DNA from: a virus
Taxonomy: Duplodnaviria > Heunggongvirae > Uroviricota > Caudoviricetes
Length of the DNA: 42,529 nucleotides
IMG/VR virus record: IMGVR_UViG_2718218227_000014
Direction: 5' to 3' (one strand)
In this document: positions 27,001 through 30,000 of the stretch, piece after piece
Layout of the letters: each line of letters starts with the position of its first letter
Numbering within the stretch: the stretch's first letter is position 1
Position numbers: made by a program

Positions 27001-30000
27001 GCCCTCAGCAACCGGCGGTGGTAACCCCATAAATTCAGTCAGAATATCGGTCAACCGGTATAGCTTGAGTTTGTCATGTCCACCAGCGGGACGAATGTTT
27101 TTCAGTCTTGCCACGACAGTCTGGCGGTGCAGACCAGATAAAGCCGCCAGTTGATTAATATTCAGCACCAGGTTTTTCAACTCATGATCCATATTTCCTC
27201 CGGAGAGCTTTAAACATGCATCGTGCGAACAACTTTAAGAAAACGCGTTCGATGTCGAACAAAAAACACTCAATTCGACATACAAAAAACAAATAACCAT
27301 TAATAATCAATAAGATGCAAAGATGATGGTGGCCGATAAAAATGCAAAAACTAGCCTTTTTCCGCGACGCTCCCGCCCCGTGGCAGGCCACCCCACCGGG
27401 AGGAGCCGTCAGCCTGAAAGCCATGACGAACGTCTGATACAGCCCTTGCATGAATGGCATCGGGATAATCCAGAAAGGAATAGCATCGACCCACAAGAAT
27501 CTGTGTGAGTGTCCTGTTTCTTCCACCCCCGCACAGGACTGGCGAGCATGAGGGACAAACCCGCGAATCATTAGCGCGGTAAAAACCCGGTGTGCATCGT
27601 TTTTGATTATTCCCGCACACTCGCGCAGAAGGAGTTCCCCGTCGGGCTACGGTCATGGTTAATGCGGGAATACAGCGACGATACAGCGCATGATGTGTCA
27701 GGCTTGAATACCTTTATCCGTTAAAAGGGATATCAGTTAAGTTATCCCGTGTAGGGTATAAGCCATTATCAAAGCCACTCTGTAGGGAGTGGCTTTTGTA
27801 ATGGCAATAAAAAAGCCCCGCGAATGCGAGGCTAAATCCAGGTATTTTTAATGACTGGCTCTTATCTCAACGCAGCCCCTTACCGCGCGCCAGATGCTCA
27901 ATATCAAGCATCAGCAATGAGATGTTTAACCATGATTCACTCCAGAAGTGAGCACCACCCTGTCTACAGAGCCAGATGTGAAGGATGATGAGTAAAATTA
28001 TCGCTATCATCGAAGGCATTGCGTCCTGATGTATTCCTGAAGCGTTCTCAGTGCTGTTTGGTCGCGGATAATTCCGTCCCGGATACCGAGAACGTTTCGT
28101 CCAGCAACTGGAGAGAGTTCGACGGTGGCATCATTGCCCATGCCGGAGGCGCTGGAGGTTTCGTCTGAGGATGGCACAGGGCATTTTCCTTTGACGAACA
28201 CCCGACCACCATTATCAAGCTTGCGCCGAAGAGCATCATTTTTAGCTTTCGCATCAGCTAACTCCTTCGTGTATTTAGCATCGAGTGCATCAGCAGCACG
28301 CTGGCGCTGCTGCATGTCAGTAATGGTGGCGGTCGCCTGCTTCAGCTCACTGACTTTTTTATCACGCTGTTCTTTATAGGCGATGGCGTTATCACGGTAA
28401 TGATTAACCGCCCATGACTGGCAGACGATGATGCAGATAACCAGAGCGGAGATAATCGCGGTTACTCTGCTCATTGTTGCCCCCACAAACAGACTTCACG
28501 CTCAATCTCGCGGCGAGTCATCAGCCCTTTCCATTGCTTACCGCCAGCGTATGTCCAGCGCCGTAGCTGATCACATGCGCCTTTGATATCACCCTGGTTT
28601 ATTTTGCGAAGAAGCGTCGATGTTCTGAAATTACCAGCGCCCACGTTGTAAACGAACGAGTAAAGAGCGCCGCGCGTTGTTTCCGGTATATCGACTTTGA
28701 TGTACGGGTTAATTTGTCTGGCGACCGTGGCAAGGTCTTTATTCAGGAGGGCTTTGCATTCTGCTTCGGTATACGTTTTACCGGGAATGATGTCTTTTCC
28801 GGTGTGTCCGTGACATACAGTCCATACGCCAACGATATCTTCGTATGGTATGTAGCTGACACCTTCCAGGCCATCGTCACCACTCGGACCAGTGATGAGC
28901 ACAGACGCTATGGCAGCAGCCCCACCACCAATAGCAGCAGCAACAGCCTTGCGTAATGATGGCGACATTATTCACCTCTCGCAGCCTTACGCTTATCTTC
29001 TTTAATCTTGAAATAAAGGTTTGTCAGATACGTCAGCAAGCCAAACACCAAGCTACCCAATACGCCTATTGCCACCCACTGGGATGGGGAGACTTTGTCC
29101 AGCAACTGCAGTAGCCAGTATCCCGTCCCCACCGCTGACGTGGTGTATGACACACCTGTTGTTATTTTTTCCATCTGGTACATACCCCGTCTCCCGTTAT
29201 CCGGAAGCTGACAACAATAAAAAGCCACCAGTTAATTCCTGATGGCCCTGATGCATAAACGTCATAATACCTGACTGTTATGATTGACAATAATGATAAT
29301 GTTTATATAGAAAGGTTCCCGATGTGTGTTACATATCATTTCTCCACGGGGAATATCCCCACGCCAGCGCAGACTCTTTTACCCGTTCTCTTCTGCGCTG
29401 GCTCTTTTTTATTATGCTGCTGCATTTACCTCTGGCACCATGCTTTCTATCTCAACACAATACGTGGTACTTCTTGTAACCAATATCATAACGATTAATC
29501 GACATAGAATTTCTCCCGTGTACAGGAACAGAGTTAAAAAGCCGGAACCGGAATCAAATCACAGGATGACCATCTGCCAGTGGCAGGTCATAAAAAAAAG
29601 GCCGCGCCATGCGCAGCCAGAACTCACAAGGAAAATGATAGAAGGAAATAACATTAGTGATGTACGCATGGCGCCTCCCGCTAAGTTCTGCAATGATCAA
29701 ACAGAACTCGCTACGTGCCCTTAAAACTCGATCATTTAGCCCCTCCAAGGAGGATTCACCATGCGGTTGATTTTTTAATAAACAGTAAACAAAAAAGTCA
29801 AGAATTATTCATTCTGTTCTTTCATCATCGGCCACAGCAATACCACAATGCCGCAGACCAGAGCGCCATCAGTCAGTACCAACATTATCCTGCTGGTGAA
29901 ATCCATCATCACCATCACTAAAAGCAGGATCACAACAGCAAGCAGACACAGTTTATAAAACAATGTTCAGGAAACGCATTCAGCATGCCTAAGGTTCTAT

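Follow-up and report, generated by a model that had tools for sequence, protein, structure and literature searches.

The locus considered here raises the question of what occupies the ~800-bp stretch without convincing genes that separates the lysis gene Rz from the small terminase gene (terS) in a 42,529-nucleotide Caudoviricetes record (IMGVR_UViG_2718218227_000014; hereafter the window, meaning the whole of that sequence). An earlier reading of the sequence alone (the sequence-only reading) had proposed a cohesive-end (cos) and packaging region "upstream of TerS", a description that holds on the minus strand only, where TerS runs from 27192 to 26701. Our analysis gives strong reason to believe that the segment is a lambda-type cos site of a lambda-like prophage, belonging to the lambdoid group whose TerS is a DUF1441 protein and read on the minus strand. 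It is a cos site of a known, standard kind and involves no new principle. The predicted subsites follow one another in the order cosQ (27407-27401), cosN (27378-27367), an I2-like spacer, R3, I1, an inverted R2 and R1, up to the TerS start at 27192.

The GC-rich segment (27361-27420) singled out by the sequence-only reading has a GC content of 75%, compared to 35% toward terS (27193-27360) and 50% over the whole window. Within it, the minus strand carries the 12-mer GGGCGGGAGCGT (27367-27378), which is collinear with the cohesive-end sequence of lambda cosN. With slashes marking the borders of the 12-mer, the minus strand of the window reads ...GGCTCCTCCCGGTGGGGTGGCCTGCCACG/GGGCGGGAGCGT/CGCGGAAAAAGGCTAGTTTTTG and lambda reads ...GGGTCCTTTCCGGTGATCCGACAGGTTACG/GGGCGGCGACCT/CGCGGGTTTTCGCTATTTATG, or in short ...CCACG/GGGCGGGAGCGT/CGCGG compared to ...TTACG/GGGCGGCGACCT/CGCGG. 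The two 12-mers are identical at eight of twelve positions and differ only at positions 7, 8, 9 and 11, while the flanking ACG (5') and CGCGG (3') are the same and both nick positions retain their CG dinucleotides. The earlier statement that no exact lambda cosN match exists is thus literally true, yet a clear homologue is present. According to the Feiss laboratory, positions 7-12 vary among natural cosN sequences, whereas the left half is conserved, as are the flanking CGs, and the cosN of Gifsy-1 departs from that of lambda at positions 8, 9 and 11 (PMC4669245). The differences found in the window, being confined to positions 7-12, fit this pattern. The same 12-mer is found in phages cdtI, Tritos, PhiR47_1, 569R4 and phi458; a full-text literature search for GGGCGGGAGCGT returned a single unrelated paper.

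The ends of related records coincide with this site. Those of cdtI (AB285204) and of the linear Tritos (OV696610) both open with GGGCGGGAGCGTCGCGGAAAAAGG, exactly at the cosN 12-mer, and the Tritos record finishes with ...CCTGCCACG (...CCACG), immediately before it. Both ends fall inside the GC-rich segment in which a cohesive-end site had been suspected, at the position homologous to the lambda nick. The boundary of the mEp460_4F5 record is displaced 5 nt upstream from the expected nick, and the accompanying paper is silent on how the ends were determined. Moreover, in phage LLS, which has a TerS 63% identical to that of the window, the record marks the homologous place as a 12-nt 5' cohesive end, GGGCGGCGCGCT. 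Staggered nicks are predicted at 27379/27378 (minus strand) and at 27367/27366 (plus strand), which would leave a 12-nt 5' extension; we infer these positions by homology. Two records show oddities in this region: mEp460_4F5 has 3 nt missing within the cohesive-end region (GGGCGGGAGCGCGG), and mEp460 has G in place of T at cosN position 12. Either real variation or assembly artefacts at the record ends could account for them. The boundary of the mEp460 record at window position 27218 was considered as a genome end and rejected, since that record merely begins at the annotated TerS start codon.

The terminase genes next to the site agree with cos packaging. The large terminase subunit (TerL; 24599-26701, minus strand, 700 aa) belongs to the lambda gpA family, with GpA_ATPase (E 9e-72) and GpA_nuclease (E 2e-85) matches. 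Terminases of this family produce 5' cohesive ends, in contrast to the headful type. The sequence-only reading had named a headful-type terminase, or ends mapping elsewhere, as findings that would speak against a cos site; on both points the evidence comes out for cos. A pac site for headful packaging would likewise be expected upstream of the terminase genes, and this position is all that favors it; against it stand a TerL with gpA-type ATPase and nuclease domains rather than of the P22, Sf6 or T4 type, the precise cosN homology, and the fixed site at which related linear records end. We regard a pac site as practically negligible. TerS (27192-26701, minus strand, 163 aa) matches Pfam DUF1441 (E 4.6e-44), and its start lies 186 nt beyond the predicted nick (ATG at position 187). 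DUF1441 proteins at the equivalent position are labelled TerS in the mEp460, LLS, Gifsy-2 and Fels-1 records. Residues 11-40 give a weak match to Pfam HTH_30, so that the N-terminus is probably a helix-turn-helix, and its recognition-helix region (...HRQT..R.) is nearly invariant across eight phages with a DUF1441 TerS, namely the window, mEp460_4F5, CP-1639, VT1-Sakai, Fels-1, LLS, Gifsy-2 and Chris1.

Between cosN and terS, the window displays the elements of a lambda-like cosB, numbered below from the left end. The minus-strand segment 27333-27366 (positions 13-46; CGCGGAAAAAGGCTAGTTTTTGCATTTTTATCGG) reads as an I2-like spacer with phased A and T tracts, an A5 and a T5 tract resembling those of the I2 segment of lambda; in 63 unique relatives it is invariant through position 34, positions 1-28 being fixed by the search pattern. 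It leads into a putative R3-like TerS site, GCCACCATCATC (27322-27333, positions 46-57, minus strand), with one mismatch to the motif WTCRWCAYC; R3 is the weakest of the three putative R assignments. Between R3 and R2, the plus strand carries an I1-like candidate site for integration host factor (IHF), AATCAATAAGATG (27305-27317), which has one mismatch to the IHF consensus WATCAANNNNTTR and is the sole match in cosB with at most one mismatch. The putative R2-like site, TTCGACATA (27274-27282, positions 97-105), lies on the plus strand, opposite to R3 and R1, and its core TGTCGA is kept in the 63 unique relatives. The putative R1-like site, TTCGACATC (27251-27259, positions 120-128, minus strand), matches the consensus exactly.

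The same arrangement recurs when the sequence from cosN to terS is compared among the eight DUF1441-TerS phages. A motif close to WTCRWCAYC (TTCGACATC or TTCATCATC) is found at fixed distances from the left end: R3-like copies in forward orientation at positions 40-57 (in the window and in the seven other phages as well), an inverted R2-like copy at positions 93-108 and a forward R1-like copy at positions 117-131, the latter two in all eight. An IHF-consensus site lies between them on the opposite strand, at positions 59-77; in the relatives it is perfect in three and has one mismatch in three at the same position and orientation, and in Gifsy-2 it has one mismatch but is forward and slightly displaced (76-88). 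The register of R3, IHF, R2 and R1 with cosN is constant in the eight phages despite a cosN-to-TerS ATG distance that ranges from 130 to 202. Thus, alignment with related cos regions, the check named in the sequence-only reading, places cosN collinear with that of lambda and yields a cosB register common to the group. The order R3-I1-R2-R1 with R2 in the opposite orientation is known for lambda, 21, phi80 and Gifsy-1 (PMC9026076), and the window matches this layout as described by the Feiss laboratory. In addition, mEp460_ev081 (LR597641; L014) carries, ~20-200 nt past cosN, an ~88-bp tandem duplication that repeats the I2, R3, IHF and R2 portion.

The putative R2 and R1 sites hold the two arms of the inverted repeat pointed out by the sequence-only reading. 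The repeat, ATGTCGAA/TTCGACAT, does exist, with 8-nt arms that are 100% complementary and 14 nt apart; its arms lie at 27252-27259 and 27274-27281, so that the interval first given for it, 27257-27284, was 3-5 nt off. In a post hoc test, the window contains this pattern a single time, and none of 100 dinucleotide-preserving shuffles contains it. In Gifsy-2, the counterpart GTGTCGAA/TTCGACAC has the outer base altered on both arms. The repeat appears best explained as the R2/R1 pair of a putative terminase-binding motif. Of the two functions first suggested for it, terminase binding is in keeping with an R2/R1 pair conserved in eight phages, whereas IHF binding falls away, the candidate IHF site being separate (27305-27317).

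Alternatively, the repeat could be a transcriptional element, either an RNA hairpin or terminator or an operator bound by a regulator of terS. A consensus scan found a weak terminator-like site on the minus strand (27261-27246) that overlaps R1, and folding of the RNA from 27300 to 27235 gives a z-score of -1.78; however, 11 of 200 shuffles fold equally well or better, the T-run falls within the loop of the 8-bp repeat, and an Rfam scan reported no family above threshold. Moreover, the perfect repeat is lost in mEp460-type relatives, while each half-site is kept at its position relative to cosN. A transcriptional element is therefore very unlikely, and the R2/R1 assignment is retained below.

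Closer to terS, immediately before the TerS ribosome-binding site, the minus strand carries a strongly conserved block (27208-27236; AAAGTTGTTCGCACGATGCATGTTTAAAG). Among 63 unique cos sequences of the window and mEp460 types it hardly varies, and VT1-Sakai, Fels-1, LLS, CP-1639 and Chris1 lack it; it may represent a lineage-specific additional R-like copy (GTTCGCACG).

Another explanation would be that the region encodes protein and that the GC-rich segment and the repeat are by-products of coding. Open reading frames (ORFs) of 129 and 101 aa do cross it, and at this place hypothetical proteins or a "putative late gene regulator" are annotated in the PhiR47_1, mEp460 and Ayreon records. Yet these ORFs have no Pfam match, and RefSeq annotation by the Prokaryotic Genome Annotation Pipeline (PGAP) places no gene here in O157 genomes. 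Relatives show indels and wholesale replacement of cosB while the non-coding subsites hold their register, and a gene at this place would be split in virion DNA. Coding by-products are thus highly improbable as the source of these features. ORFs crossing cosN and cosB were noted in the window itself (27182-27656, minus strand) and in three related records (L012, 839-1081; L001, 134-382; L003, 127-411); the hypothetical genes that several records place here are probably spurious.

Compared to lambda, the cos site of the window has the same order and spacing of subsites, with cosQ 22 nt from the nick here and 23 nt in lambda, and the TerS ATG at position 187 here and 191 in lambda. The left half of the 12-mer (GGGCGG) and the ACG/CGCGG flanks are identical, cosN is followed by A and T tracts, direct and inverted R copies have an IHF-like site between them, and TerL is of the gpA family in both. 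However, the R sites are unrelated, being of the CGTTTCC type in lambda and close to TTCGACATC in the window, and R1 and R2 are 23-24 bp apart in the window compared to about 50 bp in lambda. In addition, the DUF1441 TerS has no significant similarity to lambda Nu1, and cosQ differs by one base.

Another close counterpart is the DUF1441 group (Fels-1, Gifsy-2, mEp213/LLS, mEp460, VT1-Sakai and cdtI), in which TerS is 42-100% identical and the R3/IHF/R2/R1 register is shared. Over this region, mEp460 is about 86% identical to the window. Only the window copy has GGCTCCT at cosQ, it resides in a decayed prophage, and the 29-bp block before the ribosome-binding site is common to the window and the mEp460 subgroup only. 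The likeness to the Gifsy-1 cos site rests on its published description, namely an R3-I1-R2-R1 cosB (PMC9026076) and variation in cosN (PMC4669245). The cos sites of E. coli phage-inducible chromosomal islands (PICIs) also contain a cosQ and a cosN of the lambda kind at the same spacing; in contrast to the window, with its R-like repeats followed by terS and terL, no R repeats are recognisable in them, and the gene that comes next is rppA instead of terS (PMC9026076).

Whether this particular copy still works is a separate question, and it turns on cosQ and on the state of the prophage. Wieczorek and Feiss, in 2001, are said to have described lambda cosQ as the 7-bp sequence GGGTCCT. The window has GGCTCCT instead (27401-27407, minus strand, variant base 27405), ending 22 nt upstream of the predicted nick and aligned with the GGGTCCT of lambda and of 11 of 11 relatives, including PhiR47_1, which is 98% identical here. 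Across the 120 IMG/VR loci that share this cosN, 117 carry GGGTCCT (±1 spacing variants counted) and three carry GGCTCCT; these matches are mostly integrated prophages and were used for natural variation, not for physical ends. The stretch that separates cosQ from cosN varies freely in this set, so that the heptamer itself looks constrained. Within the same 39-nt context, complete E. coli genomes carry GGGTCCT in 599 cases and GGCTCCT in 310 (a single copy each), compared to nine and zero phage records, respectively. The GGCTCCT-bearing E. coli genomes that were inspected are O157:H7, and the variant appears to be fixed in the O157:H7 copy of the prophage. The 7-bp cosQ is described as highly conserved, natural variation not being apparent, and in lambda it is needed for termination of packaging only, not for initiation (PMC4669245). 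We consider it possible, though tentatively and with rather more doubt than confidence, that the G-to-C change at 27405 is a natural allele in which the packaging-termination signal has lost its function.

Positions 26000-28000 of the window are 100% identical to E. coli O157:H7 chromosomes. There, the variant cos segment resides in a prophage between ybhC and ybhB that carries nleB2, nleC, nleH1-1 and nleD, which we take to be Sp3 of strain Sakai, also called CP-933K. In E. coli O157:H7 PV15-279 (L023, 20225-20783), the same prophage is deleted from the middle of terS to the tail-fibre genes, and the cos site is left beside a truncated DUF1441 gene. The Sp3 prophage of O157 Sakai is reported to lack repressor and replication functions, to have a defective portal, and to undergo no circularization, replication or packaging (PMC2669165). 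In the window, the lambda-family portal ORF (23338-24462, minus strand) has a premature stop and covers only profile positions 3-324 of 354, a truncation consistent with the defective portal described for Sp3.

The defective O157:H7 prophage and the cosQ change together suggest that this cos copy may be an inactive or termination-impaired relic. In its strict form, namely a site that descends from cos but is now non-functional, with no packaging starting or ending here, this explanation seems to us evenly poised between true and false. It is favored by the replacement, in the window, of a heptamer that is kept in 117 of 120 loci despite variable surroundings; by a variant that occurs once each in 310 E. 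coli genomes but in none of the phage records, nine of which have the canonical form; and by the missing functions and lack of packaging of Sp3 (PMC2669165), along with the truncated portal ORF. On the other hand, cosN, I2, the R sites, TerS and TerL have each stayed intact, and as lambda cosQ serves termination only, cutting by a helper phage or in trans could still occur.

The motif statistics and several other findings bear on the cos assignment as a whole. The motif density in cosB is raised, with three matches at no more than one mismatch compared to 0.43 in shuffles (P about 0.012). A position weight matrix (PWM) was trained solely on sites R1 and R2 from the seven other phages, the window being excluded, and the R1 of the window ranked first among 85,038 positions in the window. 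Other points weigh against the assignment. The R2 and R3 of the window ranked only 185th and 357th in the same scan, the training sites for which had been picked by eye after the window was seen, and the degenerate R consensus is not enriched window-wide (11 matches compared to 7.5 expected). The mEp460-type relatives retain half-sites and not the perfect 8-bp symmetry of the repeat. A profile alignment of TerS against lambda Nu1 using hhalign was collinear over 140 columns but non-significant, with a probability of only 6.6%, and a PDB sequence search with TerS revealed no solved homologue. The cdtI and Tritos ends are those of deposited records, possibly set by analogy with lambda, and the LLS cohesive end is explicitly inferred, according to its authors. 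Finally, cosQ is at the expected position but matches at six of seven bases, which, together with the lack of packaging of Sp3, makes the function of this cos copy doubtful.

The genes around the site lie on the minus strand throughout, in the order holin (29228-28968), lysozyme (28968-28471), Rz (28486-28007) with Rz1 inside it (28254-28048), the ~800-bp gap, TerS and the gpA-family TerL. Between the lysis genes and cos, a strong intrinsic-terminator-like hairpin is found at 27814-27833 (minus strand), with an 8-bp stem containing six GC pairs and a T-run; the record of phage Ayreon annotates a terminator at the homologous site. Lambda-like phages such as 2B8, Lambda_4C10 and 4A7 share the 50-bp segment 27511-27560 with 100% identity. 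In Lambda_4C10 it lies about 127 nt from the right end of the record, and the corresponding distance here is about 132 nt; this similar placement suggests a mosaic joint on the upstream side of cosQ. Beyond the terminase and portal genes, a single ORF of 739 aa (20909-23128, minus strand) combines ClpP-type protease and capsid domains, corresponding to a Gifsy-2-like fused prohead protease/coat protein.

By analogy with lambda, we propose that the DUF1441 TerS would bind the R sites of cosB via its N-terminal helix-turn-helix, aided by a bend that IHF would induce. TerS would then anchor the gpA-type TerL, and cosN would be nicked 12 bp apart to generate 5' cohesive ends beginning with GGGCGGGAGCGT. 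Packaging would run toward terS and beyond, and cosQ would assist its termination at the following cos.

The cosQ variant is a minor curiosity in itself. If it is indeed a loss-of-function allele, it would be a rare natural departure from the invariance that is reported for cosQ, and GGCTCCT would block cutting of the downstream end by terminase even when a related helper phage supplies the missing functions in trans. Of wider use, the cos site is now placed at single-base resolution, as predicted from homology, for a widespread O157:H7 prophage carrying nleB2, nleC, nleH1 and nleD and for phages of the mEp460 and PhiR47 type. Furthermore, a cross-phage R-site motif for the DUF1441 TerS could help to predict which lambdoid prophages package one another's DNA, and packaging specificity of this kind bears on the movement of effector and toxin genes between strains.

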